Part shown: positions 3,383 to 43,196 of the stretch, in pieces
How positions within the stretch are numbered: position 1 is the first letter of the stretch
Layout of the letters: the number at the start of each line of letters is the position of its first letter
DNA from: Gammaproteobacteria bacterium
Lineage (GTDB): Bacteria; Pseudomonadota; Gammaproteobacteria; Eutrophobiales; Eutrophobiaceae
NCBI GenBank assembly: GCA_016193395.1
Contig: JACPSH010000001.1
Coordinates: forward strand, 15,895-79,894
Length of the DNA stretch: 64,000 nucleotides
Reading direction: 5' to 3'
The notes under the pieces: model-generated
Told to the model about the DNA's origin: nothing
The model's input: the letters and a program-made list of their open reading frames with translations, nothing else
Databases searched by the model: none
Translations under genes and position numbers: made by a program

Positions 3383-3721
<339 letters not shown>

Positions 3722-13473: not shown

Positions 13474-13496
13474 GATGCAAAACCTCGTTTTGCGTC
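13474..13496. repeat. GATGCAAAAC…GTTTTGCGTC hairpin (third copy of a dispersed palindrome family)
   Basis: The sequence is GATGCAAAAC ctc GTTTTGCGTC. It shares its arms with the hairpins at 5442 and 5621 and lies between the rnfG end and the lptD start. Confidence 0.5.
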
Positions 13497-13502
13497 ACCC
13501 GG

Positions 13503-16648: not shown

Positions 16649-17205
16649 GCAGCACGTCCATATGCCGGACCCGGCTTTGGCCAGACCGGTTTTCCCGGGG
16701 CCGCCACCGGAGGACGCAGGTCAATGCAGTCGACGGGGCAGGGGGCCACACAGAGACCGCAACCGGTGCAGAACTGCGGGATGACCGTGTGCATCTGACC
16801 GGCCGCGCCCAGGATCGCGTCCACGGGGCACGCCCGCACGCACTTGAGGCAGCCGATGCAGGCCGCTTCGTCGATATGCGCAAGGCGCGCATTCACGACA
16901 GGGGCAAGCGCGGGATCCAGCGTCTTCGGGACGGTGCCGAGGAGTTCCGCCAGCAATGTAATGGTGTGGTCTCCGCCCGGCGGGCAACGGTTGATGTCGG
17001 CGAGGCCGCCTGCGACCGCCTCGGCGTACGGCCGGCAACCGGAGTATCCGCACAGCCCACATTGCGTCTGAGGCAGCAATGCGTCGATGCGATCCGCAAG
17101 CCACTGCTTGCGTTGAAGGCCCCGACGGTTCAGCGGGTGTACCGCGCAGGCCAGGCCGCCGAGCAAGGCCATGACCAGCGCAACGACGAGTCCGACCCCG
17201 CTCAT
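16645..17205 (-). CDS. rnfB: Rnf complex subunit B
   Basis: The protein has an N-terminal TM segment. It has Cys clusters (CGLCGYSGC; [12 protein letters not shown]; [12 protein letters not shown]). Its stop overlaps the rnfC ATG. Confidence 0.85.
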
Positions 17206-17783
17206 AGTCTGGTCAGGCCGGTAAAGCCCATGAATGCCATGGACAGGATCCCCAGCGCCATGAGCAGCGCCGCGGCGCCTTGGAAGGGCCGCGGCACATC
17301 GGCCACGAGCAGGCGTTCATGCAGCGCGGCGACCAGGATCACGACGAGGCCAAACCCCGCCGCGGCGCCCAGACCATAAAACAATGAGCCGGCGAAGCCG
17401 AAATGTTGCCCGGCGTTGAGCAGGACGACGCCGAGCACCGCGCTGTTTCCAAGCACGAGGGGCACGAAGTCCCGGTAGCGGTCATGCCAGTCCGGCCGCA
17501 GGCGCGCCAGCACGGCGGCGCCGGACATCACTACTACAATGATCACCAGCACAAAGGCCAGTAGTTCGAGGTACGCGAGACCGGAAGCGCGCAGGACGGC
17601 ATGGCTGACGACCCACGTGACCGGCGTCGCTACGGTAAGCGCGACGGCGGTGACCAGGCTCATCCCGGCGGCCACGTCAATCTTTCTGGAGAGTCCGACG
17701 CCGGCGCCGACGCCGATCAGGTGGTGGAGTACGAGGTTGTTGACGAGAGACGCGCTGATAAAGATGAGGAGCAGGTCGGACAC
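17202..17783 (-). CDS. rnfA: Rnf complex subunit A
   Basis: A GTG start gives [19 protein letters not shown]… ending …[13 protein letters not shown], which can be aligned with E. coli RsxA. The stop overlaps the rnfB ATG (ATGA). Confidence 0.85.
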
Positions 17784-17868
17784 GGAGTGGCCCTGCGTGC
17801 GCTGGATTCGGATCAGTATGGAGCGAATCCGCAACCTCAACAAGCGCCGGCGGGGCCCGGCAGCGGCG

Positions 17869-19881
17869 CTACGTGATGCGCATCCCGGGCTCCGCGCCGG
17901 TGTCCGGGCTGAGCAGGAAAAGCTCCGTGCCGCCGTGGCCTGCCGCCAGCACCATGCCTTCGGACGTTCCAAAGCGCATCTTGCGCGGCTGCAGGTTGGC
18001 GACCACGGCCGTCAGCCTTCCGATGAGTTTCTCCGGCGCATAGGCCGTCTTGATCCCGGCGAAGACCGTGCGGGTCTCCGTGCCGAGATCGATCGTGAGC
18101 TTGAGCAGCTTGTCCGCCCCGTCCACGTGCTCGGCATTGACAATGCGCGCGACGCGCAAATCCACCTTGTTGAAATCGTCGATGGAAATGAATGCAGCGC
18201 TTTCCTGCGGCCTTGCTCCCGCTTTGTTTGCTTCCACCATGACCTCCACTTGCTTTGCGTCTATCCGCGTCATCAGATGTGAATAGGGGTTGACGCGGGC
18301 CGGTAGTTCCACCGCGTCCTCCCACGTGAAATCCTTTCCGAGCCCGAAGAACTCCCGCGCCGCGCGACCGCACAAAGCCGGCAGCACCGGCGCGAGCAGG
18401 ACCGACAACAGCTTGAAGCCCTGCAATGTCCGCGAACAGATATCCTGCAGCTCCGTACGTTTCGACGGATCCTTTGCAAGTTCCCAGGGTTGCGCGGCAT
18501 CGAACGCGCGATTGATCCGATCGGCGAACTCCATCGCGGCGCGGATCGCCTTTCCGAAATCCCGCGACTCGTAATGTTCAGCGACCTGGGCGAGCGCGAC
18601 CTTCGCCCCGGCGACCAGCGGCTTGGTATCGCCTGCATAGGCAAGCTGGCCGCCGAACTGCCGCGAGATGAAGCCCGCCGCGCGGCTCGCGATGTTCACG
18701 TACTTGCCGATGAGATCCGAGTTCACGCGCGCGACAAAATCCTCCAGGTTCAGATCGACGTCCTCCATCGTGCCGTTGAGCTTCGCCGCGTAGTAGTAGC
18801 GCAGGTACTCGGGATTGCCGACGTGATCCAGGTAGCTGCGCGCCGTGATGAAGGTGCCGCGCGACTTCGACATCTTCTCGCCGTTCACGGTGAGGAACCC
18901 GTGGGCGAATATCGAAGTCGGCTTGCGGTAACCGGCCCCTTCCAGCACCGCCGGCCAGAACAGGGCGTGGAAGTAGAGGATGTCCTTGCCTATGAAATGG
19001 TACAGCTCCACGGCGCTGCCCGGCGCCCAGAAATCCTCGAAGCGCAGGCCCGTCTTGGCGCAATGGTTGCTGAAACTCGCCATGTAGCCGATTGGGGCAT
19101 CCAGCCAGACGTAGAAGAATTTCCCCGGCGCATCCGGGATTTCAAATCCGAAATAGGGCGCATCGCGCGAGATGTCCCAGTCCCTGAGCCCGGCCGCGAA
19201 CCATTCATCGAGCTTGTTCGCCGCCTCCGCCTGTACGTGGCGCACGTCGGTGATATCCGGGAACAGCCACTTGCGCAGCCCGTCCTCGAAGTCGCCGAGG
19301 CGGAAAAACAGGTGCTCCGACTCGCGTTCCACGGGCGGCGCGCCGGAGAGGACGGAAACCGGGTTTTTCAGATCGGTCGGCGAGTAAGTCGCGCCGCAGG
19401 ATTCGCAGGCGTCTCCGTACTGGTCAGCCGCGCCGCAGCGCGGACATTCGCCCTTGATAAAGCGGTCCGGCAGGAACAGGTGCTTGACCGGGTCGTAGGC
19501 CTGCCGGATGGTGCGCGCGACGATATGGCCGCCCGCCTTCAGCCGCCGGTAAATCTCCTCGGAAAGCTGGCGATTCTCGATGGAATGCGTGCTGTGGTAG
19601 TTGTCGACGCTAATGTGGAAATCGGCGAAGTCCCGGCGGTGCTCGGCATAGATTCGCTCGATCAGCGCCTCCGGCGGGATGCCTTCGGACTCCGCGCGCA
19701 GCATGACCGGCGTGCCGTGCGTGTCGTCGGCGCACACGTAGTGCACGTCGTGTCCCCGCATCCGCTGAAAGCGCACCCAGACGTCGGTCTGGACGTACTC
19801 CAGGAGATGGCCCAGGTGGATCGGGCCGTTGGCGTAGGGCAGGGCGCTGGTGACGAGGAGGCGGCGTTTGTTTTCCGGCAT
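17869..19881 (-). CDS. metG: methionine--tRNA ligase
   Basis: The protein has the class I HIGH motif ([12 protein letters not shown]) and KMSKS. It has Zn-knuckle Cys residues and a C-terminal tRNA-binding (EMAP) domain. Confidence 0.9.
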
Positions 19882-21690: not shown

Positions 21691-22252
21691 CGTCAAGTCC
21701 GACAAGTGGATCCGCCGCATGGCGAAGGAACACGGCCTCATCGAGCCCTTCGAGCCCGGCCAGGTCAGGCGCAACGGCGACCGGCGCCTGGTGTCGTTCG
21801 GCACCTCGAGCTATGGCTACGACGTGCGCTGCGCGGACGAGTTCAAGATCTTCACGAACATCAATTCGACGATCGTCGATCCGAAGGAATTCGACGAGCG
21901 TTCCTTCGTCGACTTCAAGGGCGAGGTCTGCATCATCCCGCCCAATTCCTTCGCGCTGGCGCGCACCGTCGAGTACTTCCGCATTCCGCGCAACATCCTG
22001 ACAATTTGTTTAGGAAAATCGACGTACGCTCGTTGCGGCATAATCGTGAATGTAACGCCATTGGAACCGGAGTGGGAAGGCCACGTCACGCTGGAATTCT
22101 CCAACACCACGCCACTGCCGGCGAAGGTGTATGCCAACGAGGGTGTCGCGCAGGTGATCTTCCTCGAGTCCGACGAGGAGTGCGAAACCTCCTACAAGGA
22201 TCGCGGCGGCAAGTACCAGGGCCAGAAGGGCGTCACTTTGCCGAAGACCTGA
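21686..22252 (+). CDS. dcd: dCTP deaminase
   Basis: The 188-aa protein begins [27 protein letters not shown]… and continues …VDPKEFDE…[11 protein letters not shown]…. Confidence 0.9.
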
Positions 22253-24170
22253 TCCTTGTAGGCGCCGCGCGTCGGCGGCGCGCGCCCGCACCCCTGATCT
22301 CGTCAACCGCGACGCCGGCTTGCACGTCTCCCGCCGCCGGTGGATCGGCGGCCTCGACGAGCGCATTCAGCTGCCCCGCCGCGACGCTGTAGGGCCAGCC
22401 GGACGCAAACGTCGCGATGGCATCGTCGAATACCTCTGGGAACGAGTGTCCGCCGGGCTCCGGAATGCCCAGCCACGGGCGCGTATCGAAGGTATGGAAC
22501 TCGACATGCGGCTGGCGGCGCGCCGGCTTGTGCAGCACGGAGTTGATGCGAGGATAGATATTCACGTCGAGGAAGACGGCGGCACCGTCCTTCCGCCGTC
22601 GCAGGAAGTCTACGGCGAAGAAGTCGAGACGAAGGGTCCTAGCGATCAGCCGGAGCTGCTCGACCTCCGCGGCCGGCATGTCGAAGGTGGGGAGGATTTT
22701 CGGCCGGTTCCTCAGGCACACGTTCCAATCCCGGCAGGCCAGGGCCTTGCTGGGGCGGACCGCGCCCGCGATGAAGAAGGCGCGGTAGCGCCAGTGGTTT
22801 CCGTGCTTGCCGCGCGAATCCACAAATTCAAAGGCGCGAAATCCCTCTCGCGGCCCGTCGAATGGCACGAGCACTTTTTCGGACATCTGCTGGCCCATAC
22901 GCTTGTAAACGACCTGTGTCCGGCCCAGCTCGGAGTCGGCGAAGGTCGCCCGCGGCACGCTGACGCCAGCCTCCGCCAGGCGCTGAAAGCAGTCCGGCTG
23001 ATGGTAGGCGTCGTAATGATCCGGGTGATTCATGACGCGGGCGCCGGGACGCATTTGCTGGAGCAGCTCGAGAATTTGCAGCCGCCTTGGGTCCCCCAGC
23101 GGATCCTGTGTAAACAGCCAGACGATGTCGGCGGTCTCGATGCCCCGGTTCACGGACGCCGAGCACCGGCGGCTGCGCTCGTTGATCCAGCGTGCCATTA
23201 ACGCCCCGAAGCGCGGCTCGGAATCCTGCTGTTCGAGCAGGCAGATGTGCAGCTCGCGTCGCCGCACCGGGTGCTTCTTCCTCCGGCCCGCCGTGCGGCG
23301 CGGCTGGTCGCGGAGCCGCCGGCAGGCATACAGCGGGTAATACCGGTACCAGTCTTCGCCGGCAAAGGCATGGCGCTTGAATGAGAATCCCGCCTCCGCC
23401 AGCAGCGTTTCCCACTCCGCGCGCGTCAGCAGCATGGTCCGGCCCCCGAAGTAGTAGCGGCGAACGAGCGCTCGCTCCTGCTGCGTCATCGCCCCCGACT
23501 CCACCAGGGCGTCAATCCGCTGGTAAACGACACGGTTGTCCAGTGCGCGGGCGGCCGGATCCCAGACCTGCTCGAAAAAGCCCCACAGCCTCATGCCGAG
23601 GCCGAAGCCAGCCTCGGAGAGCCCGCCGTCCCGGAATCTTGCGATTTGAACTTCGGCTCGACACGCCTCGGGATCGAAGCCGTCGGGAATCAACGCCTGC
23701 CGTAAAATGAGCACGCCGGAATTGGCGAGCGCTTCCGCCGCGGCGTTCAGCAGTTCCGCATGATCCTCCCGTGTCGCAAGGTTTCCGCACACGCCGTCCC
23801 CGAGGATCGCGTCCAGCTGACCCCTGTTGCGCCGCAGCTCCTGCGACCATTCTGCTTGCACGATCCGTTCGCGCCGGGACCACTCCTCGGGCACCCAGTC
23901 CCTGTACAGCGCGATGGCATCGGCGCTGCAGTCGATGCTGAGCAGCGCCGAGGCGACTTCCAGCACCGTGCACCGCAGTTCCGGCGTCATCCCCAGCACG
24001 GCCACGCGCGGCCGCCGGCCTGTGCGCATGGACGTGCCGGCCAACAGGAGATCCCTGTACCCGCGCAGCTCGGTCTCGTTGGGCGAACCCGCCGCAAACC
24101 GCTGTCGCGCGCGGACATCGCAAATGCGCGTCAGCAGCGTCTGGCGATTCCAGTCTTGTTCCCCGTCCAT
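22233..24170 (-). CDS. uncharacterised two-domain protein; C-terminal half ATP-grasp-like
   Basis: The 645-aa protein has no signal peptide. Its C-terminal approximately 300 aa resemble the ATP-grasp fold; the closing motif [10 protein letters not shown] matches the RimK/GshB-type xLEVNxxPG motif, with basic and Gly-rich segments upstream. The N-terminal half is alpha/beta-like and of unknown function. It is divergent from the Ehr operon. Confidence 0.55.
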
Positions 24171-24236
24171 TCAATCTTTCGGTCCGGCTCGGGTTGAAGG
24201 CCCAGTGCGTGGCGCCTTAGTGATGCGAATTGCTTG

Positions 24237-24256
24237 ATATATGATGTATCATATAT
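24237..24256. promoter_or_regulatory. AT-rich perfect palindrome (candidate operator) in divergent promoter region
   Basis: The sequence is ATATATGAT gt ATCATATAT, set in GC-rich DNA. It lies between the divergent genes at 24170 and 24298. Confidence 0.45.
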
Positions 24257-24297
24257 GGAAATATAGATTCCAAACTGCAGATCAAGGACTCAACGTT

Positions 24298-24543
24298 ATG
24301 CTCTCTGCCGGCCAAATGCGAGCCGCCCGCGCCCTGCTCGGCTGGGATCAGAAGCAGCTCGCGGAAGCGGCCGGCGTGTCGCTGCCCACGGTGCAGCGCA
24401 TGGAAGCGAGCGACGGCAACGTCCGCGGCAACGTGGATACGCTGGTGAAAGTCGTGGAGGCGCTGCGCGCGGCGGGCATCGAGCTTATTGGCCAGGGCGC
24501 CGCCAGCGCCACGGGAGGGCGCGGCGTTCGCCTGCGCAGTTGA
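24298..24543 (+). CDS. XRE-family helix-turn-helix transcriptional regulator
   Basis: The 81-aa protein begins MLSAGQMRAARALLGWDQKQLAEAAGVSLPTVQRME, which is a short HTH_XRE domain. Its stop overlaps the start region of the next gene. Confidence 0.7.
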   Translation: MLSAGQMRAARALLGWDQKQLAEAAGVSLPTVQRMEASDGNVRGNVDTLVKVVEALRAAGIELIGQGAASATGGRGVRLRS

Positions 24544-24551
24544 TCGCCTCC

Positions 24552-26597
24552 ATGTTCGAGTTCTCCCCGGCGATGCTCGTTTACGCGGCGGTATGTTCCA
24601 CGCTGGCCGGCGGCTTCGCGTCGCTGTTCGCGGATCGCTGGCCGGCGGTCCAGAAGTTCCTGGTATTCCCGTTGCTCGGCCTGTCCGGAGTCGTGTCGAT
24701 TGCCGCCTGCCTGGCGGCCCTTTCCGGCGCCCCGGCAGTCACCGACGAACTCGCGCTCGGCCTTCCGTGGCTGCAGTGGCATGTGCGTCTCGATTCGCTG
24801 TCCGGATTTTTCCTGGGCGTGATTGGGTTGATCACGCTGGCGGTCAGCGCGTTCGGACCGGGATACGTGCGCGAATATTCGAACAGCCACTATTCGCTCG
24901 CGCTGCTCGGCGTGATGACGGCGCTGTTCGTCGCCGGGATGCAGCTCGTGGTCGTGGCGGACGATGCCTTCGCCTTCATGGTCGCCTGGGAACTCATGTC
25001 GGTCGCGAGTTATTTCCTGGTGGCCTTCGAGCACGAAGAGGCGGCGAACCGGCGCGCCGCGTTCCTCTACCTGTTGATGGCCCAGGTGGGCGCGATCCTG
25101 ATCCTGCTGTCCTTCGGCGTGCTCGCCGCGCATGGCGGGGATTTCACCTTCGCCGCCATGCGGCACGCTGGACTGACGCCGCTCTGGGCCGCCGCCTCTT
25201 TCGGCCTCGGGCTCCTGGGCTTCGGCATGAAGGCGGGCATCGTGCCATTGCACGTCTGGCTGCCCGAGGCGCACCCGGTCGCCCCCTCGCACATCTCCGC
25301 GCTCATGTCCGGCGTCATGCTCAAGGTCGCGGTCTACGGCTTCATCCGGCTCGTGTTCGATCTGCTCGGCGATCCGCACTGGTCCTGGGGCGTCGTCGTG
25401 CTGGCGGTCGGCAGCGTCACTTCGCTCTATGGCGTGCTTTACGCGCTCGTGCAGCACGACCTGAAGCGCCTGCTGGCCTACCACTCGGTCGAGAACATCG
25501 GGATCATTTATATTGGTCTGGGCCTGGCCCTGATCTTCTTCAGCGCGAACCTGCCCGCGTTCGGCGTGCTGGGCCTGATCGCGGCGCTGTATCACACGTT
25601 GAACCATGCCCTGTTCAAGAGCCTGCTCTTTCTCGGCGCGGGCGCGCTGCTCCAGCACGGCCACGAGCGCGATCTCGAACACATGGGCGGCCTGATCCGG
25701 CGCATGCCGTGGACCGCGCTGTTCTTTCTCATCGGCTGCCTCAGCATCTCGGCGCTGCCACCGTTCAACGGCTTCGTATCCGAGTGGCTCACCTTCCAGA
25801 CGGCCTTGCAGGCCACGACCCTGGAAAGCGGTGTGTTGCGCGCGGTGATCCCGATTTCCGCCGCCGTGCTCGCGCTCAGCGGCGCGCTGGCGGCCACGTG
25901 CTTCGTCAAGGTCTACGGCGTCGCCTTCCTGGGGCAGGCCCGTAGCCGCAAGGTGCGCCATGCCCGCGAGGCATCGCACGGGATGGTGCTGGCGCAGGCG
26001 GTACTCGCCTGTCTGTGTCTGCTCTTTGGCGTGCTGCCGACCACCACGGTCGAGTTCCTGAGCCGAATCAGCGTGGATCTGACCGGTTTCGGCGTTACCG
26101 CGGCGACACGCCAGGGATGGCTGTGGCTCACACCCATTGCCCCTGAAGTCGCGAGCTACAGCGCGCCGCTGGTGCTGCTCGGCGTGCTGCTCGCGCTCGG
26201 CGCGTGGGCCGCCGTGTACTTTTCCTCGCGCAAGCGCCGCCTTGTCCAGCCCTTGCCGCGCCGCGACGCCTGGGACTGCGGTTTTGGCCCGCTGACACCG
26301 CGCATGCAGTATTCGGCGTCCGCCTTCGCCATGCCCATACGCCATATCTTCCGGCCGGCGTGGCGCCTGCATGAGGAAAAAGTACGCGAGATGGATCCGC
26401 AGTTGAGCACGCGCCCGCTGCAATTGCGCTACCTGATGCACGCGGACGACCTGAGCTGGCAATACTTCTATCTCCCGGTGGAGCGCTTCGTGCAGGGCGC
26501 CGCGCGCCGCGTCGGGCGGATCCAGACCGGTCACCTGCGCCACTACCTGGCGTACTCATTTTTCACCCTGATCGCGCTGCTATGGCTGATTACCTGA
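24552..26597 (+). CDS. HyfB/HycC-like (NuoL/Mrp antiporter-like) membrane subunit
   Basis: The protein has more than 15 TM helices and a NuoL/HyfB signature (WLPEAHPVAPSHISALMSGVMLKVAVYG). It has an ATG at 24552 and an alternative TTG at 24540. Confidence 0.85.
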   Translation: MFEFSPAMLVYAAVCSTLAGGFASLFADRWPAVQKFLVFPLLGLSGVVSIAACLAALSGAPAVTDELALGLPWLQWHVRLDSLSGFFLGVIGLITLAVSAFGPGYVREYSNSHYSLALLGVMTALFVAGMQLVVVADDAFAFMVAWELMSVASYFLVAFEHEEAANRRAAFLYLLMAQVGAILILLSFGVLAAHGGDFTFAAMRHAGLTPLWAAASFGLGLLGFGMKAGIVPLHVWLPEAHPVAPSHISALMSGVMLKVAVYGFIRLVFDLLGDPHWSWGVVVLAVGSVTSLYGVLYALVQHDLKRLLAYHSVENIGIIYIGLGLALIFFSANLPAFGVLGLIAALYHTLNHALFKSLLFLGAGALLQHGHERDLEHMGGLIRRMPWTALFFLIGCLSISALPPFNGFVSEWLTFQTALQATTLESGVLRAVIPISAAVLALSGALAATCFVKVYGVAFLGQARSRKVRHAREASHGMVLAQAVLACLCLLFGVLPTTTVEFLSRISVDLTGFGVTAATRQGWLWLTPIAPEVASYSAPLVLLGVLLALGAWAAVYFSSRKRRLVQPLPRRDAWDCGFGPLTPRMQYSASAFAMPIRHIFRPAWRLHEEKVREMDPQLSTRPLQLRYLMHADDLSWQYFYLPVERFVQGAARRVGRIQTGHLRHYLAYSFFTLIALLWLIT

Positions 26598-27544
26598 ACC
26601 TGGCCGGCTGGCTGGCCGCCCTGGCACAGACCGTGCTGTTCGTCGCGATCGCGCCGCTGTTCGCCAACTGGGTCAAGCGCGCCAAGTGCACGCTCCAAAA
26701 CCGCCGCCCGCCGCCATGGCTGCAGCCATACCGGGATCTGCGCCGGCTGTTCGGAAAGGAAGTGGTGCTCGCGCATACGGCTTCACACGTGTTCCGCATC
26801 GCTCCTTATATTGTCTTCGGGACCGCCGTGCTCGCGGCCTCCATCATCCCGTTCATCCTTGCCGAAATCCCGTTCGCCGCGATGGCGGACGCCATCGTGC
26901 TGGTCGGCACGCTCGCGCTCGGCAGGTTCTTCCTCGCGCTAGCCGGGCTCGACGTGGGCACGAGCTTCGGCGGGATGGGTTCGTCGCGGGAAATGACCTT
27001 CGCGGCGCTGGCCGAACCCGCGATGCTCATGGTCGTGTTCACTCTGGCGATGCTGGCCTCCAGCACCAACCTCTCCACCGTGGTCGGGTTCTTCCTGGAA
27101 CAGCCCCTGGCGCTGCGGCCGTCGCTCCTGTTCGGCCTCCTCGCGCTGCTCCTGGTCGGGATTGCCGAGACGGGGCGCATCCCGGTGGACAACCCGGCGA
27201 CGCACCTCGAGCTGACCATGATCCACGAGGCCATGATCCTCGAATACACGGGCCGGCATCTCGCGCTCATGGAGTACGCCTCGCAGCTCAAGCTCGCGAT
27301 ATACGCCGTGCTGACCGTCAACCTGTTCCTGCCGTGGGGGATCAGCCGCACGCTGGACCCCGCGTCGGTGGGCATCGCGGTCCTGGCCCTGACTGCCAAG
27401 CTTGCGGTGCTCGGCGCGCTGCTCGCGCTCGCCGAAACCCTCGTCGCGAAGATGCGGCTGTTCCGCGTGCCGACCTTCCTTGCCGTCGCCTTCACCCTGT
27501 CGCTCATCGGCATGCTCAGCTTCATCATGCTGGAGGGCCATTGA
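26582..27544 (+). CDS. HycD/HyfC-like (NuoH-like) membrane subunit
   Basis: The 320-aa protein resembles NuoH/HycD (…IAETGRIPVDNPATHLELTMIHEAMILEY…). Confidence 0.85.
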   Translation: MADYLNLAGWLAALAQTVLFVAIAPLFANWVKRAKCTLQNRRPPPWLQPYRDLRRLFGKEVVLAHTASHVFRIAPYIVFGTAVLAASIIPFILAEIPFAAMADAIVLVGTLALGRFFLALAGLDVGTSFGGMGSSREMTFAALAEPAMLMVVFTLAMLASSTNLSTVVGFFLEQPLALRPSLLFGLLALLLVGIAETGRIPVDNPATHLELTMIHEAMILEYTGRHLALMEYASQLKLAIYAVLTVNLFLPWGISRTLDPASVGIAVLALTAKLAVLGALLALAETLVAKMRLFRVPTFLAVAFTLSLIGMLSFIMLEGH

Positions 27545-28224
27545 TGACTGCTTATGCCGATCTGCCGCTGATCGAGCAGCTCATCCGCACCTTTGCGGCG
27601 CTGATCCTGGTCAGCTCCTTTGCCCTGCTGGCCCAGGCGCGCGTGGTCGCGGCCATCCAGGTATTCGCCTGGCAGGGTTTTCTGCTGTCCGCCCTGACGG
27701 CGCTGGTCGCCTGGAACTCCGGGCTCCCGCATCTCTACATTTCCGCCGTGCTGAGCCTCGTGCTCAAGGCCTTGTTCATTCCCTGGCTGCTCATCCGCCA
27801 GTCCCGGCGGCTCGGGATCCTGCGCGACTTTGACGCCGTGATCCGGCCGGGGTTGACGCTTATGGCGGCCGGAACGCTGGTCATCTTCTGCTACAACGTC
27901 GTCATACCGGTGCGGGAATTCACGCAGATCGTCACGCGCGACGCCATCGCGGTGAGCCTCGCGCTCGTCATGATTTCGCTGCTCATGCTGATCACGCGCC
28001 GCAAGGCGATCACCCAGGTCGTGGCCTTCATGTCGCTCGAGAACGGACTGTTTTTCGCGGCCGTGACGGCCACCCAGGGCATGCCCATGGTGGTGGAGCT
28101 CGGCATCGCCTTCGACGTGTTGATCGCCGCGGTCATCTTCGGCGTGTTCTTCTTCCACATCCGGGACAGCATTGAAACCCTCGACGTGGACCAGTTGAGC
28201 CGCCTGCGGGAGATGGACGAATGA
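27544..28224 (+). CDS. HyfE-like membrane subunit
   Basis: The 226-aa polytopic membrane protein has the size and position of HyfE. Confidence 0.75.
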   Translation: MTAYADLPLIEQLIRTFAALILVSSFALLAQARVVAAIQVFAWQGFLLSALTALVAWNSGLPHLYISAVLSLVLKALFIPWLLIRQSRRLGILRDFDAVIRPGLTLMAAGTLVIFCYNVVIPVREFTQIVTRDAIAVSLALVMISLLMLITRRKAITQVVAFMSLENGLFFAAVTATQGMPMVVELGIAFDVLIAAVIFGVFFFHIRDSIETLDVDQLSRLREMDE

Positions 28225-29699
28225 TCGCGCTCGTCATTACACTGTCGACGCCTCTCCTGGCCGCGTTGGTTCTTGCGGTGGTGCGCTCCCCGCGGATTGG
28301 CGGCTGGATCAACATCAGCGCGACGGCGGCCGGTTTTGCCGCCGCCACGTGGCTCGCCTGGACGGTGCTCGGGCAGGGCGCCATCCACGGCGATCAGTTC
28401 CAGGTGGATGCCTTCAACGTGTATCTCATTGCGTTGACTTCCCTCGTCGGGCTGTCGACCTCCATCTTTTCGCGCCCGTACATGGAACACGAGCTGGAAC
28501 TGCGCCGCGTGACGCCGCGCCGCATGCGGCTCTACCACGCGAGTTTCCAGGGATTCCTGTTCACGATGCTTTTGTCGCTTTCCACGAACAATCTCGGCGT
28601 GCTCTGGGTCGCGCTCGAGGGCGCCACGCTGGCCACGGTTCTGCTCGTCAGCCTGTATCGCACGCCGGAGTCCATCGAGGCTGCCTGGAAATATTTCATC
28701 CTTTGTGGCGTCGGGATCGCCCAGGCGCTGTTCGGCACGGTGCTGCTGTATTTCGCGGCCGCGCGCGTCGTGCCGGATCCGGAACGGGCGTTGCAATGGT
28801 CGGTGCTGTACGCGCATGCCGGCCAGCTCGAGCCGGTCGTGGTGGCCATTGCATTCATCTTCCTGCTTATCGGTTACGGCACGAAGGTTGGACTCGTGCC
28901 GCTGCACAACTGGCTCCCGGACGCGCACTCCGAAGGCCCAACGCCGATGTCCGCGGTGCTGTCCGGCCTGCTGCTGAACGTCGCCCTGTATGCCGTGGTG
29001 CGCGTCAAGATGATTACGGACGGCGCGCTGGCTGCCGGCGTGGCGCACGATCCACAGCTCGCCGGCCGGTTGATGATGGGGTTCGGGCTCACCTCTTTCC
29101 TGGTCGCCGGTCTGTTCCTGCACCGACAGAAGGACATCAAGCGCCTGTTCAGCTACTCCTCCATAGAGCACATGGGGCTGATGACGTTTGCTTTCGGATT
29201 GGGCGGGCCGCTGGCGACCTTCGGAGCGCTGCTGCACATGACCGTGCATTCGCTGACCAAGTCCGCCATCTTTGTCACGGTGGGGCATGCGAGCCAGATC
29301 GCCGGGACACAGCGCATCGAGCAGATCCGCGGCCTGATCCGCACCCAGCCGCAGGTCGGCTGGGGTCTGCTGATTGGCAGCATCGCCATCGCCGGTTTCC
29401 CGCCTTTCGGCGTGTTCACCAGCGAGTTCCTGCTGCTGACGGCCACCATGAAGAGTTCGCCCTGGCTGACCGTGCCCCTGCTGGCGGGTTTTGCGGTGGC
29501 CTTCTCCGGGCTGTTCCGCCATCTTCAGCCGATGGTGTTCGGCGCATTGCCGGCCGGCCAGAAGCCGATCAACATGAACCCGGTGCCGGTCACGCTGCAC
29601 CTCGCGCTGGTGCTCTGGCTTGGATTGTCGATCCCGCCGTCGCTCGCGCGCTGGTTTGACGATGCGACTCGGCTCATCAGCGGGAGTGGCCTGCTGTGA
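28221..29699 (+). CDS. HyfF/HyfD-like (NuoN/M antiporter-like) subunit
   Basis: The 492-aa protein has a NuoM/N signature (LHNWLPDAHSEGPTPMSAVLSG). Confidence 0.85.
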   Translation: MIALVITLSTPLLAALVLAVVRSPRIGGWINISATAAGFAAATWLAWTVLGQGAIHGDQFQVDAFNVYLIALTSLVGLSTSIFSRPYMEHELELRRVTPRRMRLYHASFQGFLFTMLLSLSTNNLGVLWVALEGATLATVLLVSLYRTPESIEAAWKYFILCGVGIAQALFGTVLLYFAAARVVPDPERALQWSVLYAHAGQLEPVVVAIAFIFLLIGYGTKVGLVPLHNWLPDAHSEGPTPMSAVLSGLLLNVALYAVVRVKMITDGALAAGVAHDPQLAGRLMMGFGLTSFLVAGLFLHRQKDIKRLFSYSSIEHMGLMTFAFGLGGPLATFGALLHMTVHSLTKSAIFVTVGHASQIAGTQRIEQIRGLIRTQPQVGWGLLIGSIAIAGFPPFGVFTSEFLLLTATMKSSPWLTVPLLAGFAVAFSGLFRHLQPMVFGALPAGQKPINMNPVPVTLHLALVLWLGLSIPPSLARWFDDATRLISGSGLL

Positions 29700-31273
29700 A
29701 ACCGGAAGAAGCCCTGCTGCCGTTTCTGGATGCCTGCCGCCGCAATGGCGTGGAGCCCGCGGCGATCGATTTTGTCGCTCTGGCGCCCGCGTCCATGCTC
29801 GTCGCCCAGCCGGCGCAGTGGCGCGAGCTGGCCTACGCCGCGAAGACGGCCACCATGCGCTGGTGCGCGTTCTGGGCGCAGGAGGCAGTGGGCGGTTTTG
29901 AGGCGTTTTCCTGTTACGAGTGGGGCGGCGAATACCTGGTGATCCGCTGCCGTCTCGCCCGCGACGAAGCGCTGCCGTCCGTGGCGTCGATTTACCCGTC
30001 GGCCGATCGTCCTGAGCGCCACGCGCACGATCTGCTCGGCCTCCACTTCAGCGAGCAGCCGGACCCGCGCCGATGGACCCGCCATCGGGCCTGGGACGAG
30101 CATGAATACCCGCTGCGATCCGATTTCGCTGCGATCCCCGCGAAGCCGACGCCGCCGGATCACGAATATCCGTTCGTCCAGGCCCACGGGGCGGGCGTGG
30201 TCGAGATCCCGGTCGGGCCGGTGCACGCCGGCATCATCGAGCCCGGCCATTTCCGCTTCCAGGCGCTGGGAGAGATCATCCTCAACCTGGAAGAGCACCT
30301 GGGCTACGTGCACAAGGGCGTGGAAAAGATTGCCGTCGGGCGCGATGCCGCGGGACTGGCGCGGCTGGCCGGCAGGGTCTCGGGCGATTCGACCGTGGCG
30401 CACGCCTGGGCCGCCTGCCAGGCGATGGAACGGGCAGCCGGGATCGAAGTGCCGGCGCGCGGCCAGTGGTTGCGCGCGCTGCTGGCCGAGCGCGAACGGA
30501 TCGCCAACCACTTGGGCGACATCGGCGCCATCTGCAATGACGCGGCATTCGCCTTCGCGCAATACCAGTTGACGCGGCTCAAGGAAGACTGGGTGCGCGA
30601 GAGCGGCGCCATTTTCGGCCACCGCCTGCTCATGGATCGGGTGGTGCCCGGCGGCACGGCCGACGATGTCACGGCCGAAAGTGCACGGCGCATGATCGAT
30701 TCGGCGCGCCGGATCGGGCCCGAGGCCGCGGAGATCGTGCGCATCCTGGAAGATTCCGAATCGCTGGAGGACCGGCTCATGCGCACCGGGCGTCTCGATT
30801 CGGAACTCGCCGCGGAGCTGGGCGTGGTCGGTTACGTGGGCAAGGCCTCCGGCCAGCTCTTCGACGTGCGCGCCGATGCCCCGTATGCGCCCTACGACAG
30901 CCTCGAAGTGCGCGTTCCCCATTACCGCGCCGGCGACGTCGCGGCGCGCGCCAAGGTGCGGGCGGAGGAGATCACGATCTCGCTGGAATTGATCGTGAAA
31001 TTGCTCGAGTCGCTTCCTGATGGTCCGCACCGCGCGGAGTGGCGGGCGCCCGATCGGGTCTGCGAAGGGATCGGGATGGTGGAGGGGTGGCGCGGCGAGA
31101 TCCTGGCCTACGTCCGCTTCGATGACTGCGGTCGCATCGCCCGCTTCTTCCCGCGCGATCCAAGCTGGCTCACCTGGCCGGCGCTGGAGCTCTGCGTGCA
31201 GGGCAACATCGTGCCGGATTTCCCCTTGTGCAATAAATCCATCAACGGTTCGTACTCGGGACACGACCTGTGA
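29696..31273 (+). CDS. [NiFe]-hydrogenase large-subunit/NuoC-NuoD-like protein lacking metal-ligating cysteines
   Basis: The gene has a GTG start overlapping the previous stop. An N-terminal NuoC-like region is fused to a NuoD/HycE-like region (GPVHAGIIEPGHFRF…LEEHLGYVHKGVEK). The L1 position reads RVSGDS where RxCGxC is expected, and the C-terminus reads DFPLCNKS where DPCxxC is expected, so three of the four Cys are replaced. Confidence 0.85.
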   Translation: MKPEEALLPFLDACRRNGVEPAAIDFVALAPASMLVAQPAQWRELAYAAKTATMRWCAFWAQEAVGGFEAFSCYEWGGEYLVIRCRLARDEALPSVASIYPSADRPERHAHDLLGLHFSEQPDPRRWTRHRAWDEHEYPLRSDFAAIPAKPTPPDHEYPFVQAHGAGVVEIPVGPVHAGIIEPGHFRFQALGEIILNLEEHLGYVHKGVEKIAVGRDAAGLARLAGRVSGDSTVAHAWAACQAMERAAGIEVPARGQWLRALLAERERIANHLGDIGAICNDAAFAFAQYQLTRLKEDWVRESGAIFGHRLLMDRVVPGGTADDVTAESARRMIDSARRIGPEAAEIVRILEDSESLEDRLMRTGRLDSELAAELGVVGYVGKASGQLFDVRADAPYAPYDSLEVRVPHYRAGDVAARAKVRAEEITISLELIVKLLESLPDGPHRAEWRAPDRVCEGIGMVEGWRGEILAYVRFDDCGRIARFFPRDPSWLTWPALELCVQGNIVPDFPLCNKSINGSYSGHDL

Positions 31274-31338
31274 GGATACGACTCAAGGCGGCCCGCGGGT
31301 GGCTCGGCCGGATTCATCCCAAGGGGGACAAATGAGAC

Positions 31339-31427
31339 AAATGGGGACAGATTTATTTTCCGGGAAGGAAAATAAATCTGTCCCCATTTTTCCACGGGAA
31401 GGAAAATAAATCTGTCCCCATTTTTCC
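31339..31427. repeat. AT-rich 23-bp perfect hairpin plus 2x33-bp tandem repeat inside the operon
   Basis: The hairpin is AAATGGGGACAGATTTATTTTCC gggaa GGAAAATAAATCTGTCCCCATTT. The unit CGGGAAGGAAAATAAATCTGTCCCCATTTTTCC is repeated twice (31361-31393 and 31395-31427). Confidence 0.65.
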
Positions 31428-31433
31428 GAAAGC

Positions 31434-31559
31434 GCCGTCATTCCGGACACACGAGCGTATGCGAGCGTCGCCCGGAATCCAGTCGAGTCGGAGAGCACTC
31501 GGCGCCGACTGGATTCCGGGTCGCGCCCCGGCTGCCGCCGGGGCTTGCCCGGAATGACG
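31434..31559. repeat. nested GC-rich palindromes (GTCATTCCGG … CCGGAATGACG; CCGGAATCCAGTCG … CGACTGGATTCCGG)
   Basis: The outer inverted repeat is CGTCATTCCGG/CCGGAATGACG. The inner pair is CCCGGAATCCAGTCG/CGACTGGATTCCGGG. CCCCGGC…GCCGGGG is also present. The motifs GTCATTCCGG and CCGGAATCCAG recur at 57258-57284. Confidence 0.6.
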
Positions 31560-31580
31560 ACATAACCAGGTGATCACGAA

Positions 31581-32123
31581 GTGTTGAAGCTGCTCGGCAA
31601 AATCATCCGCATCGGGGTCGTCACCGAGCCGCCGCCGGTCGCTGACGCGGAAGCGATGGAGCGCCTGGGCATCGAGGTACAGCGCGTGCTCGATCGGCGT
31701 TTTTCCGGAAGCCTCGCGATCCGCCACGTCGATGCCGGCTCATGCAACGGCTGCGAGCTCGAGATCCACGCCCTCAACAATCCCTATTACGACGTGGAGC
31801 GTTTCGGCGTCCACTTCGTCGCCTCGCCGCGCCACGCCGACTGCCTGCTGGTCACGGGGCCGGTGTCCAGGAACATGGAGGCCGCCCTGCGCCGCACCTG
31901 GGAGGCCTGCCCGGACCCGAAGCTCGTGATTGCCTCCGGAGATTGCGCCTGCAACGGCGGCGAGTTCGGCGTCTCCTACGCGAGTTGCGGCGCAGTGGAG
32001 AACGTCATTCCCGTGGATGTGCGCATTCCCGGCTGTCCGCCGACGCCGGGGCAGTTGCTCACGGGATTGCTGGCACTGTTCGGAAAGATGGAAGAGGAAA
32101 GGATCGTGGCTCGGGATTCGTAG
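31581..32123 (+). CDS. hydrogenase small-subunit/NuoB-like Fe-S subunit (HycG/HyfI-like)
   Basis: The protein has GSCNGCELEI, SPRHADCLLVTG, DCACNGG and IPGCPP, which are the NuoB/HycG 4Fe-4S ligands. It has a GTG start. Confidence 0.8.
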   Translation: MLKLLGKIIRIGVVTEPPPVADAEAMERLGIEVQRVLDRRFSGSLAIRHVDAGSCNGCELEIHALNNPYYDVERFGVHFVASPRHADCLLVTGPVSRNMEAALRRTWEACPDPKLVIASGDCACNGGEFGVSYASCGAVENVIPVDVRIPGCPPTPGQLLTGLLALFGKMEEERIVARDS

Positions 32124-32205
32124 CTTGGGGCTCGTGTCCCGAGTCCCGAGTCCCGTTTCTCCATATAATTACCTGCCGTCCCCGCGGCCATATCGCGTTT
32201 AAGCA

Positions 32206-33609
32206 ATGAATTCACTACCCGTCTTTCTCCGCCTGCAAGGCCGCACGTGCCTGGTCGTCGGCGGCGGCGAGGTCGCCGCGCGCAAAGTCGCCCAGCTTCT
32301 TAAAGCCGGCGGCGAGGTGCGCGTGGTGGCGCCGGAGCTTTGCCCCGCGTTGCAAGAGAGGGCGAGCCGTCGGGACATCCAGCACCGGGCAGAGGAATTC
32401 AGCGCGGAGTTCCTGGAAGGGTGTGTACTGGCGATCGCAGCGACGGACGATCGTGGGATCAACCGCCGGGTTTCGGATCTCGCTCAAGAGCATGGGATCC
32501 CGGTGAACGTGGTGGATGACCCCGAGCTGTGCACCTTCATCATGCCCTCCATCGTCGATCGAAGCCCGGTCGTGATCGCGATTGCAAGCGGCGGCGCCTC
32601 GCCGGTGTTGTCGCGGTTGTTGCGCGCCCGGCTCGAGACGCTGATCCCGTCAGGATTTGGACGCCTGGCCGAGTTGATGCGGGAATTCCGTGCCCGTGTG
32701 CGCGAGAAATTTCCCGTGATGAAGGATCGACGCCGGTTCTGGGAACAGATTCTGGAAGGGCCCGTCGCGGAAATGCTCTACGCCGGCCAGGACAAGGTGG
32801 CGCTGGCCGAGCTGGAGGAACGACTGCGCGAGGAGAAGCCGACCGTCGAACGGCATGGCGAGGTGTATCTCGTCGGGGGAGGGCCCGGCGATCCCGACCT
32901 GCTCACCTTCCGTGCGCTGCGGCTGATGCAGCGGGCGGAAGTCGTCCTCTACGATCGGCTGGTGGCGCCGGCGATCGTCGATTTGTGCCGCAAGGACGCC
33001 GAACGGATCTACGTGGGCAAGGAGCGCGATCGGCATGCAATTCCACAGGAGGAGGTGAATGAAATGTTGATCAAGCTCGCCGGCGAGGGAAAGCGCGTGC
33101 TCAGGCTCAAGGGCGGCGATCCCTTCATCTTCGGGCGCGGCGGCGAGGAAATTGACCGGCTGTCGGAGGCCGGTATCCCATTCCAGGTCGTGCCGGGCAT
33201 CACGGCGGCCGCGGGTTGCGCGGCTTACGCCGGCATTCCGCTCACGCACCGGGACTACGCTCATTCGTGCATCTTCGTGACCGGCCACATGAAGGACGGA
33301 AAACTGGAGCTCAATTGGGACGCACTGGTGCAGCCAAAGCAGACCATCGCGGTGTACATGGGCGTGAAGGGTCTCGATACGCTGTGCGAGGAACTGATCC
33401 GGCATGGTATGAAAAAGGAAATGCCGGCCGCACTGGTTGAGCGCGGCACCACGGCCAGACAGCGGGTGTATGTGGGCACGCTGGCGACACTGCCAAAACT
33501 CGCCGGGGATCACGAGATCGCGGCGCCTTCGATGGCCATCATCGGCGAGGTCGTCAAGCTGCACGAGAAACTGGCCTGGTACGACCCTGCCGGAGGTCCT
33601 CGCGGCTGA
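32206..33609 (+). CDS. cysG: siroheme synthase (multifunctional CysG)
   Basis: The N-terminal Rossmann domain (LVVGGGEVAARK) acts as a dehydrogenase/ferrochelatase. The C-terminal uroporphyrinogen-III methyltransferase domain has VYLVGGGPGDPDLLT and GGDPFIFGRGGEE. Confidence 0.9.
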   Translation: MNSLPVFLRLQGRTCLVVGGGEVAARKVAQLLKAGGEVRVVAPELCPALQERASRRDIQHRAEEFSAEFLEGCVLAIAATDDRGINRRVSDLAQEHGIPVNVVDDPELCTFIMPSIVDRSPVVIAIASGGASPVLSRLLRARLETLIPSGFGRLAELMREFRARVREKFPVMKDRRRFWEQILEGPVAEMLYAGQDKVALAELEERLREEKPTVERHGEVYLVGGGPGDPDLLTFRALRLMQRAEVVLYDRLVAPAIVDLCRKDAERIYVGKERDRHAIPQEEVNEMLIKLAGEGKRVLRLKGGDPFIFGRGGEEIDRLSEAGIPFQVVPGITAAAGCAAYAGIPLTHRDYAHSCIFVTGHMKDGKLELNWDALVQPKQTIAVYMGVKGLDTLCEELIRHGMKKEMPAALVERGTTARQRVYVGTLATLPKLAGDHEIAAPSMAIIGEVVKLHEKLAWYDPAGGPRG

Positions 33610-33627
33610 GCCGGCGGGCAAACCGGA

Positions 33628-35064
33628 TCAGCCGGTCTTGCCCGGGTCCGCGAGCCGCGAAATGCTCTCGGAGGACAGGAGTTTTTCGATCGCCGCCTCG
33701 TCCATCAGCTTTTCGGCGCGCACGATGTCGATGATGGTCCGGTTCGATTCGATCGCGAGCGCCGCGATCCTTGCCGCGGTTTCGTAGCCGAGGTAGGGAG
33801 ACAGCACCGTGGCGACGGCCGCGCTCTTCTCGACGTAGTCCCGGCAACGGTCCCGGTTCGCGGTGATCCCCTCGACGCAGCGTACCGCGAGGACGTTCAC
33901 GGCGTTGCGCAGCAGGGACGCCGACTCCAGCAGATTGAAGACCATCAACGGCTGCATGGCGTTCAACTGCAACTGTCCCGCCTGCGCCGCGAGCGTGACG
34001 GCCACGTCATTGCCCATTACCTGGAAGCAGGCCTGGTTGACGGCCTCCGGTATGACCGGATTCACCTTGCCGGGCATGATCGTCGAACCCGGCTGCATCT
34101 TGGGCAGGTTGATTTCGTTCAGGCCCGCCGCCGGGCCGCTGTTCAGCAGCCGCAGATCGTTGGCGACTTTCGATAGTTTCACCGCGACGCGCTTCAGCAT
34201 CGCGGACACCAGCACGAAGGCGCCCGGGTCCGATGTGGCTTCGACCAGGTGCGAGGCCGGCGTGACCGCGATGCCGGACAGTCGCGCAAGCTGGGACAGG
34301 GCGATCCACTGGTAGCCGCGGGGAGCGTTGATACCGGTGCCGATGGCGGTGCCGCCGAGGTTGACTTCCGCCAGCAGTTTCTCGAACTCGCGCAGCCGGT
34401 CGATGTCCTCCGACAGCATCACGGCGAAGGCCTGGAACTCGAGTTCCAGCGTCATCGGCACCGCATCCTGGAGCTGTGTGCGCGCCAGCTTGACGACGTC
34501 GCGGAATTCGCGCGATTTGCGCTCTAGGGCGGCGACCAAGTTGCCGAGTGCGTTGCGCAGCGCCCGCGAGGCGCGGATCACGGCCACGCGGGCGGCGGTC
34601 GGGTAGACGTCGTTCGTCGACTGGGACATGTTCACGTCGTTGAGCGGATGCACGACGTCGTAGCTCGCCCGCGGCACGCCCAGGATGTCGAGCGCGAGGT
34701 TGGCGATCACTTCGTTGGCGTTCATGTTGGTGGAGGTGCCCGCGCCGCCCTGAACCAGGTCGACGACGAAGTGTTCGTGGAATTCGCCGGCGGCGATCCG
34801 TTGGCAGGCACGGATGATCGCCTCGGCCTTGCGCGGGTCCAGCAGGCCCAGCCCCTGGTTCGCCAGCGCGGCCGCCTGTTTCACGATGGCCAGCGATTCC
34901 ACCAGTTCGGGGTAGCGGCGGATGGGAATGCCGGTGATCGGAAAATTGTCCACGGCGCGCTGCGTCTGGACGCCGTAGAGCGCGTCCCGGGGAACGCGTA
35001 AGGTTCCCAGGCTGTCGGTTTCCTCGCGGAACGCGTCGCCAGGTGAGTGTTGTTGCGATTTCAT
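33628..35064 (-). CDS. aspA: aspartate ammonia-lyase (fumarase/aspartase family)
   Basis: The protein has the GSTIMPGKVNPVIPE signature and a tetrameric lyase fold. I set the start at MKSQQHS. Confidence 0.8.
   Translation of the reverse strand: MKSQQHSPGDAFREETDSLGTLRVPRDALYGVQTQRAVDNFPITGIPIRRYPELVESLAIVKQAAALANQGLGLLDPRKAEAIIRACQRIAAGEFHEHFVVDLVQGGAGTSTNMNANEVIANLALDILGVPRASYDVVHPLNDVNMSQSTNDVYPTAARVAVIRASRALRNALGNLVAALERKSREFRDVVKLARTQLQDAVPMTLELEFQAFAVMLSEDIDRLREFEKLLAEVNLGGTAIGTGINAPRGYQWIALSQLARLSGIAVTPASHLVEATSDPGAFVLVSAMLKRVAVKLSKVANDLRLLNSGPAAGLNEINLPKMQPGSTIMPGKVNPVIPEAVNQACFQVMGNDVAVTLAAQAGQLQLNAMQPLMVFNLLESASLLRNAVNVLAVRCVEGITANRDRCRDYVEKSAAVATVLSPYLGYETAARIAALAIESNRTIIDIVRAEKLMDEAAIEKLLSSESISRLADPGKTG

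Positions 35065-43106: not shown

Positions 43107-43196
<90 letters not shown>

Follow-up and report, generated by a model that had tools for sequence, protein, structure and literature searches.

The 64-kb stretch analysed here, from contig JACPSH010000001.1 of an uncultured gammaproteobacterium, is referred to as the window, and all coordinates below are window positions. Its plus strand carries six co-directional genes at 24540-32123, which encode a relative of [NiFe]-hydrogenases and complex I and are preceded by a small XRE regulator gene. Genes were called from a listing of open reading frames (ORFs) together with Pfam and NCBIfam profile searches, and they are named after the corresponding genes of the hyq operon of Azorhizobium caulinodans:

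24298..24543, plus strand: hyqR, XRE-family helix-turn-helix (HTH) regulator, 81 aa (Pfam HTH_3, E = 6.8e-8; the ORF could begin at 24241)
24540..26597, plus strand: hyqB, antiporter-like membrane subunit of the HyfB/NuoL type, 685 aa (849 bits with NCBIfam NF005086 'hydrogenase 4 subunit B', whose cut-off is 667)
26582..27544, plus strand: hyqC, HycD/NuoH-type membrane anchor, 320 aa (Pfam NADHdh, E = 2.1e-36)
27541..28224, plus strand: hyqE, HyfE-like small membrane subunit, 227 aa (NCBIfam NF008556 'hydrogenase 4 membrane subunit', E = 3.3e-26, under the cut-off; weak match to Pfam Oxidored_q2, NuoK-like)
28221..29699, plus strand: hyqF, antiporter-like membrane subunit of the HyfF/NuoM type, 492 aa (733 bits with NCBIfam NF005045, whose cut-off is 543)
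29696..31273, plus strand: hyqG, large subunit in which NuoC-like and NuoD/HycE-like domains are fused and the NiFe ligands are missing, 525 aa (Complex1_30kDa, Complex1_49kDa and the N-terminus of NiFeSe_Hases)
31581..32123, plus strand: hyqI, small subunit resembling NuoB/HycG and bearing a [4Fe-4S] site of the N2 type, 180 aa (Pfam Oxidored_q6, E = 2.8e-32; 128.5 bits with NCBIfam NF005012, whose cut-off is 116)

A preliminary description, made from the DNA alone, had assigned HyfB-, HycD-, HyfE- and HyfF-like membrane subunits plus a large and a small subunit to six co-directional, mostly overlapping genes, and the ORF listing and the Pfam and NCBIfam matches for all six bear it out. Neighbouring genes overlap by 4-16 bp at five junctions, hyqR being translationally coupled ahead of the structural genes; the exception is hyqG-hyqI, where 308 bp intervene. 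No frameshifts were found in the six structural genes, and the GC content at third codon positions (GC3) is of coding type (0.84-0.90) in the five that were scored, hyqE lying outside the scored set. Overall, the encoded complex is a six-subunit minimal relative of formate hydrogenlyase (FHL), hydrogenase-4 and complex I. Alignments and profiles likewise support the core of the earlier reading, namely, an Ehr-type operon resembling group 4 hydrogenases and complex I whose large subunit has lost its NiFe ligands.

The tightly packed seven-gene hyqRBCEFGI operon was described in A. caulinodans by Ng et al. 2009 (PMC2650096), R. leguminosarum bv. viciae was named as a bearer of an orthologous operon (Ng 2009, Sprecher 2012; PMC2650096, PMC3357923), and the 'hyq' of alphaproteobacterial diazotrophs was pointed to elsewhere (PMC4758237). 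For comparison we used the copy on pRL11 of R. johnstonii 3841, formerly R. leguminosarum bv. viciae, which we infer to be the one meant in those papers. Its annotation runs HTH regulator, hyfB, nuoH-like, hyfE, hyfF, nuoC-like and nuoB-like, and the regulator overlaps hyfB by 4 bp, as in the window. The blastp identities between the two copies are 65% for HyqR (E = 4e-33), 46% for HyqB, 54% for HyqC, 39% for HyqE, 55% for HyqF, 46% for HyqG and 58% for HyqI. Since the same seven genes thus occur in the same order with identities of 39-65%, the locus is an ortholog of hyqRBCEFGI, and we are highly confident that it represents the gammaproteobacterial form of this operon under the broader Ehr umbrella. 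The operon type is therefore one already described, of which the window holds an intact copy.

The likeness to the A. caulinodans ORS571 system (AZC_4355-4360 plus hyqR) extends beyond gene order and the overlap of the regulator with hyqB. Both CxxC motifs of HyqG are lost in the two systems, the four cysteines of HyqI (Cys55/58/~122/152) are shared, and HyfA, D, H and J are absent from both. Further orthologs have been listed in Rhizobium, Bradyrhizobium, Xanthobacter, Azospirillum and Rhodopseudomonas (Ng et al. 2009; Sprecher et al. 2012), and the missing CxxC motifs of HyqG were already pointed out by the authors of the hyq studies (PMC3357923). By contrast, the window copy differs in its gammaproteobacterial host, in lacking a NifA box and a sigma-54 promoter, in a repeat insertion between hyqG and hyqI, and in the loss of the third conserved cysteine. 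Two of the three A. caulinodans cysteines are kept, Cys258 and Cys491 being equivalent to C280 and C512 of the window HyqG, whereas the position of Cys497 is occupied by Gly518 and reads Gly or Ala throughout the gamma clade; Rhizobium has FNCSYSG here, its HyqG motifs being GRTSGDSTVAY... DFPLCNKSFNCSYSGHDL.

The Ehr complexes to which the locus also belongs share with it NuoB-, NuoD- and NuoH-like, antiporter-like and HyfE-like subunits encoded together, as well as the absence of the NiFe cysteines (PMC6349859, PMC7894505, PMC10284858). However, Ehr is a broad umbrella defined by absences, within which the locus falls into a subgroup with hyfBCEFGI syntax, a fused NuoC-NuoD and an XRE regulator. 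These energy-converting, or Ech-hydrogenase-related, complexes were reportedly delineated by Coppi in 2005 and by Marreiros et al. in 2013, whose criteria we have at second hand, with Geobacter sulfurreducens GSU0739-0745 as an example. In the literature they appear as complexes with neither NiFe ligands nor an established function (PMC6349859, PMC10284858, PMC7304191), and the large subunit of the Acidithiobacillus hyfBCEFGI cluster is classed as a non-hydrogenase by HydDB (PMC7735108). The match to Ehr made in the preliminary description therefore stands, but its statement that the family has no assigned function overlooks the hyq deletion phenotypes, which were read as H2 recycling or evolution.

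The best solved relative of HyqG is E. coli HycE (7z0s_E, E = 3.4e-60, phmmer). Alignment of the 525-aa large subunit with HycE confirmed the cysteine substitutions seen earlier and revealed no canonical CxxC pairs at an offset. The two ligand-bearing segments are replaced as follows:

30374..30391, plus strand: L1-equivalent motif RVSGDS, residues 227-232, in place of RxCGxC, aligned with HycE RVCGIC
31244..31270, plus strand: L2-equivalent C-terminus NGSYSGHDL, residues 517-525, in place of DPCxxCxxR, HycE DPCYSC aligning with NGSYSG (517-522)

In this alignment all four NiFe ligands are substituted (C to S, C to S, C to S and C to G), and HyqG thus lacks the four cysteines that the L1 motif RxCGxCxxxH and the L2 motif DPCxxCxx[HR] contribute in group 4 [NiFe]-hydrogenases of the HycE/HyfG type. 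The preliminary description had been right about the loss but had counted only three of the four ligands as replaced, mostly by Ser. Its C-terminal motif, DFPLCNKS, was mis-registered: it lies upstream of the true motif, NGSYSG, and its cysteine (Cys512) aligns with the Ile-Ile of HycE 'PLIIGS', which is no ligand position. The hydrogenase scaffold is otherwise retained, including R227, H236, the EPGHFRF loop (from E182), Y520 and D524. The C-terminus of HyqG coincides exactly with the end of mature HycE and has no protease-cleaved extension, so that nothing is left for a maturation protease to remove.

The replacement residues are themselves strongly conserved. In an alignment of 27 homologs R227, S229, G230, D231, H236, C241, C280, C512 and N513-G522 are invariant. 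Moreover, each of the 120 closest database proteins (59-100% identical) ends in CNKS[VIM]N[GA]SY[SA]G-x-D[LM], and ligand replacement of the RVSGDS/NGSYSG type is common to them all. The NiFe cysteines have thus given way to a conserved Ser-Gly-Asp-Ser / Ser-Tyr-Ser-Gly pocket next to a HyqI with a single [4Fe-4S] cluster, and the Hyq complex would not be a conventional [NiFe] hydrogenase. That the Ser-Gly-Asp / Asn-x-Ser-Tyr-Ser-Gly-x-Asp pocket, which lies roughly one FeS cluster from the membrane coupling machinery, might instead form a new catalytic site, activating H2 or another small molecule without nickel, seems to us improbable.

With E. coli hydrogenase-4 and FHL (Hyf, Hyc; 7Z0S) and with HydDB group 4f the locus shares several features. 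HycE, HycG and HycD are the best solved relatives of the corresponding subunits, HyqB and HyqF pass the cut-offs of the HyfB and HyfF equivalog models, and the EPGHFR loop is retained. What the locus lacks are the NiFe ligands, ferredoxin subunits of the HycF/HyfH and HyfA/HycB kinds, HyfD, a formate dehydrogenase, maturation genes and a cleavable C-terminal peptide. When the called genes of the 64-kb window were scanned with Pfam, leaving out a few short ORFs, a second glnK and the partial gene at 63027-63998, no HycF/HyfH/NuoI-type ferredoxin subunit, no free-standing ferredoxin and no formate dehydrogenase, hyp, hyc or hycI gene was detected, in agreement with the preliminary description, which had reported HyfA/HyfH/HycF-type ferredoxins, formate dehydrogenase and hyp/hycI as absent. 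The only ferredoxin-domain proteins among the scanned genes are RnfB and RnfC, encoded ~7 kb upstream, and no HycF/HyfH/NuoI-type subunit was found in those operons of relatives that were inspected.

These observations bear on the proposal, made for A. caulinodans Hyq, that the complex is a genuine H2-metabolizing 'endo-hydrogenase', in which the HyqG pocket or some other site would oxidize or evolve H2 on the cytoplasmic side and exchange electrons with the quinone pool through the cluster of HyqI. The proposal fits the gene-for-gene orthology to hyqRBCEFGI, the strong conservation of the pocket residues, nodule data (PMC2930871) and the behaviour of hyq deletion mutants, in which diazotrophic growth is slowed and net H2 release raised, while H2 evolution is lower in a hup background (PMC2650096, PMC3357923). 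It has to contend, however, with the absence of all four NiFe ligands, of a C-terminal processing extension and of hyp or protease genes among the scanned genes of the window. The authors of the deletion study, which relied on whole-operon deletions and included no cell-free assay, themselves considered a NiFe site 'uncertain, if not unlikely' (PMC3357923). The genetic evidence for H2 recycling or evolution in vivo is confined to A. caulinodans. Moreover, the H2 phenotypes could be indirect, arising from altered nitrogenase electron flux and H2/N2 partition, since a complex that supplies or withdraws low-potential electrons would shift this flux and with it the H2 output of nitrogenase. The operon in the window shows no sign of NifA/sigma-54 control, and the family is also widespread where there is no nitrogenase link. 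We therefore regard an endo-hydrogenase as unlikely.

In contrast to the NiFe site, the iron-sulfur (FeS) site is preserved. Cys55, 58, 122 and 152 of HyqI, whose best solved relative is HycG, fall on the [4Fe-4S] ligand positions of HycG and MbhJ, as anticipated in the preliminary description, and they are kept in the Rhizobium copy as well. The membrane subunits also retain their functional residues. In HyqB, the channel-position residues E151, K231, K262 and E415 are conserved in 57-61 of 61 aligned sequences (59 orthologs, the window copy and the Rhizobium copy), and in HyqF, E133, K222, K347 and E402 are conserved in 72-74 of 74 (72 orthologs plus the same two). The best solved relatives of HyqF are MBS, Mrp MrpD, MBH and NuoM subunits, and MrpD and MrpA are among the solved relatives of the two antiporter-like subunits. 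For HyqC, the best solved relative is FHL HycD (7z0s_D, E = 2.3e-41), followed at a distance by complex I Nad1 (~5e-7).

With complex I (NuoB, C, D, H, L, M) the locus has in common the fold families, the Glu/Lys proton-channel residues and the N2-type cluster, whereas NuoA, E, F, G, I, J and N are missing and the Q-site His and Tyr of NuoD have become Ile181 and Gly230. Neither of the features that define complex I, the NuoD quinone ligands and a NuoI subunit, was thus recovered, Pfam and NCBIfam searches having found no NuoI homolog. One might picture the complex as a redox-independent, Mrp-like cation/proton antiporter or a device for pH or ion homeostasis, the HyqG/HyqI cap acting as a structural plug or gating redox sensor. 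The full Glu/Lys channel set in both HyqB and HyqF, the presence of MrpD and MrpA among the best solved relatives, the absent quinone-ligating His/Tyr, and the lack of an electron-input subunit and of any recurrent redox partner gene in the neighbourhoods would all suit such a device. On the other hand, the pocket residues (S229, G230, D231 and H236 among the 27 homologs, the C-terminal motif in 120 of 120 proteins) and the FeS cysteines (also in the Rhizobium copy) are conserved beyond what a passive plug would need, and the Mrp-specific small subunits MrpB, E, F and G are not present, which leaves this explanation with a minor share of the probability.

The conservation seen in close relatives holds across a large family. 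A search of 50%-identity cluster representatives with HyqG retrieved 6651 relatives at E<=1e-3 and 896 at E<=1e-30. Most of the best 150 representatives carry [SA]GD[STNE]... NSY[SA]GD, and 19 of these 150 carry CGxC... CYxCD and are true hydrogenases, ~38-40% identical. In a rough neighbour-joining tree the HyqG proteins of the window and of Rhizobium each count among the Cys-less clusters closest to the other, and the clusters with cysteines lie far from both. Related loci come from Gammaproteobacteria (Sulfuricaulis, Acidiferrobacterales, Thiohalomonadaceae, Thiorhodococcus, Methylobacter and others) and also from Nitrospinota, Methylomirabilis, Desulfuromonadales and Comamonadaceae; the hosts of Hyq/Ehr include rhizobia, Burkholderia, Cupriavidus, methanotrophs, sulfur oxidizers, Nitrospira and Nitrospinota. 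The order B-C-E-F-large-small is kept in nearly all of 80 genome loci, namely wherever the contig is long enough. Some orthologous operons contain a small extra ORF between hyqG and hyqI or between hyqF and hyqG (e.g. L085, 11591-11827, and L087, 8500-8811; Falsiroseomonas and a Ca. Methylocalor plasmid).

Because replacement motifs, channel residues and gene order are all conserved across relatives, Hyq/Ehr is, to judge by these comparisons, a functional family maintained by selection across proteobacterial classes and other phyla, not a pseudo-operon. Frameshifts or relaxed selection in most orthologs were looked for and not seen. The degraded, frameshifted pseudo-operon against which the preliminary description had cautioned is likewise not borne out, as the frames are intact and the replacement motifs conserved.

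The spacing of hyqG and hyqI is nevertheless unusual in the window, with 308 bp compared with 5-20 bp in relatives. The gap (31274-31580) is filled by repeats:

31342..31427: inserted hairpin consisting of a 20-bp stem followed by a T-run (31342-31386), with a half copy of 33 nt in tandem; resembles a terminator whichever strand is read
31436..31559: another inverted repeat within the hyqG-hyqI gap, nested in structure and resembling a repetitive extragenic palindrome (REP) or a miniature inverted-repeat transposable element (MITE)

A 19-mer of the hairpin element occurs in three copies at 31342-31427 and nowhere else in the window, the region 31274-31580 folds with -149.5 kcal/mol (z = -6.5), and no Rfam match was obtained in 23500-34000 at E<=0.1. 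Other REP-like hairpins lie at the hyqG-hyqI junction of the related loci L010, L012 and L014, the element of L014 being of a related type, with arms CGTCATTCCGG...CCGGAATCCAG. Together with the lost catalytic cysteines, a 308-bp repeat insertion carrying a terminator-like hairpin could be taken as a sign of decay, that is, of a former Hyf hydrogenase losing its function. Six intact frames, coding-type GC3, conserved replacement motifs and channel residues, and a HyqI that is 87% identical to the small subunit of the nearest relative make this scarcely credible.

The best explanation as a whole is, in our view, that the locus is Hyq and encodes an FeS-dependent ion-translocating module, to which we would assign a probability of about 0.55. 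Given that the FeS ligands and the polar pocket are conserved, chemistry or a redox-linked conformational trigger would still reside at the HyqG/HyqI/HyqC junction. A redox or protonation event there, beside the FeS cluster, would be coupled through the Glu/Lys chain to the movement of H+ (or Na+) through HyqB and HyqF, as in complex I, MBH and FHL. As no NuoI/HycF subunit is present, ferredoxin, flavodoxin or another soluble carrier would be the simplest donor, docking directly and passing electrons to or from the cluster. The other partner might be an acceptor in the membrane or bound in the pocket, for which quinone is the default guess, and the reaction could run in either direction. This particular mechanism, in which a junction redox event served by a soluble carrier drives ion movement, is offered tentatively and is more probably wrong than right in its details.

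Several points weigh against the FeS-dependent module, two of them against quinone as the acceptor. The complex I residues that bind the quinone head group, Nqo4 His38 and Tyr87, are those aligned with HyqG Ile181 and Gly230, and HyqC is far nearer to FHL HycD than to NuoH. The redox partners named above are guesses, and we know of no precedent for access to the cluster without a NuoI-like subunit. An AlphaFold2 model of HyqG, built from the 27-sequence alignment, has a mean predicted local distance difference test score (pLDDT) of 72.5 but falls below 50 at the pocket (156-207, 229-232 and 488-525), where it is unreliable for site analysis. Furthermore, the terminator-like hairpin before hyqI may mean that HyqI is not certain to be produced in step with the other subunits. 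Finally, hyq deletion in A. caulinodans resulted in 10-15-fold more net H2 at 20 uM O2 and, in a hup background, in ~80% less H2 at <1 uM O2 (PMC3357923). These phenotypes point to H2 itself, and an ion-translocating module explains them only indirectly.

The preliminary description had also placed an XRE regulator first in the operon, and this gene turned out to be no incidental neighbour: it is the conserved hyqR, whose product is 65% identical to the Rhizobium protein. An XRE gene comes first in 11 listed loci of relatives as well as in L081, L082/L083 and L084, and the lengths of the relatives' regulators (75-98 aa) favour the start at 24298 over that at 24241. In Methylococcales loci (L020-L080) the operon has no XRE gene. 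Upstream of hyqR lies one further feature:

24237..24257: AT-rich palindrome ATATATGATGTATCATATATG, a candidate HyqR operator/promoter region seen in the sequence ~40 bp upstream of hyqR

The palindrome core, ATATGATGTATCATATA, recurs in the Nitrospinota locus L055, again ahead of the XRE gene, and similar TGAT...ATCA palindromes precede XRE genes in L084, L009 and L086, Rhizobium being included among the hosts. The palindrome at 24237-24257 is thus a likely HyqR operator, through which HyqR probably autoregulates the operon, and its recurrence in unrelated hosts shows that HyqR and this probable operator accompany the operon in different proteobacterial classes and even in Nitrospinota.

No match to the sigma-54 -24/-12 pattern (TGGCAC-N5-TTGCW, <=2 mismatches) was detected in the 127 bp upstream of hyqR (24171-24297), this pattern occurred no more frequently than expected by chance, and a sigma-70 scan found no promoter ahead of hyqR or hyqI. 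The window contains no nif gene, and ahead of hyqR there is no NifA/sigma-54 signature that would visibly place the operon in a nif regulon. The window copy thus shows that the nif linkage of Azorhizobium hyq is not general.

Around the operon the genes run metG-rnfABCDG, apbC, dcd, a 645-aa ORF, hyq, cysG, aspA, GNAT and msrB. The cysG gene (32206-33609) starts 82 bp past the operon on the same strand, with an aspartate ammonia-lyase gene beyond it on the other strand. From this position a functional tie of Hyq to siroheme, sulfur or nitrogen assimilation could be imagined, and the preliminary description had indeed presented cysG as an unusual partner. In a survey of 87 related loci, however, not one had a CysG homolog within ~10 kb of the operon, and downstream genes vary in every genome inspected. 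Such a tie is accordingly very improbable, and cysG is, judged by this survey, a chance neighbour. Likewise, aspA and the 645-aa ORF are found beside the operon in none of the 87 loci. The 645-aa ORF itself (22233-24170, minus strand), divergent from hyqR, has a GC3 of 0.82, which is of coding type, and no Pfam or NCBIfam match.

Indeed, each related genome that was inspected has different genes on either side of the operon, which indicates that the operon is a self-contained module with HyqR as its sole conserved companion in the clade, and no recurrent partner gene was found outside one methanotroph subclade. In this subclade of Methylococcales (L020-L080), one or two SulP-family anion transporters are encoded upstream, and an outer-membrane-like protein, a histidine kinase and a sigma-54 response regulator downstream (~2500-4700 and 12000-16000 in 21.5-kb loci), possibly reflecting a different regulatory and functional context. 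Confined as they are to Methylococcales, the SulP transporter, the outer-membrane protein and the two-component pair were rejected as general partners. Rnf was considered as a conserved partner too. The metG-rnfABCDG genes lie at 13503-19881 on the minus strand, ~7 kb from the operon, and in L082, a 68%-identical relative, they are found directly upstream of hyqR on the same strand (121-4429); L083 is a second contig with a large-subunit protein identical to that of L082 and counts with it as one relative. Rnf is absent from the other 85 loci and was therefore rejected, its proximity probably representing lineage synteny and no functional link.

Two further observations concern more distant parts of the window. 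The essential lptD, as a rule one gene, is here broken into two neighbouring minus-strand ORFs, 11616-13352 and 11056-11610, which correspond to the N-terminal and the C-terminal part of the LptD profile; an in-frame stop, a frameshift or an assembly error in the metagenome-assembled genome could account for this. The region 43107-54231 looks like an acquired island, comprising a tRNA (43107-43193, the only Rfam match in the window), an IS3-type transposase (43925-45078) and a stretch of lower GC content (52-55% compared with ~64%) with genes for an extracytoplasmic function (ECF) sigma factor, FecR, a TonB-dependent receptor, a beta-lactamase-fold protein, an MFS transporter and an MR/MLE enzyme.

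For the biology of the family the window in itself adds little that is new, and it makes the function of Hyq no more testable than do the cultured rhizobial, Cupriavidus and Burkholderia copies. The locus does link two literatures that seldom cite each other, the comparative genomics of Ehr and the rhizobial genetics of Hyq. Hyq/Ehr complexes are among the most widespread relatives of complex I without a known reaction, and they routinely carry mistaken annotations such as 'Ni,Fe-hydrogenase III large subunit', 'HypE' or 'NuoC', with the consequence that inferences of H2 metabolism from metagenomes are inflated. Should the pocket of HyqG after all prove to be a nickel-free catalytic site, the nif-independent gammaproteobacterial copy would imply a general bioenergetic function in aerobes, beyond that of an accessory to nitrogenase.

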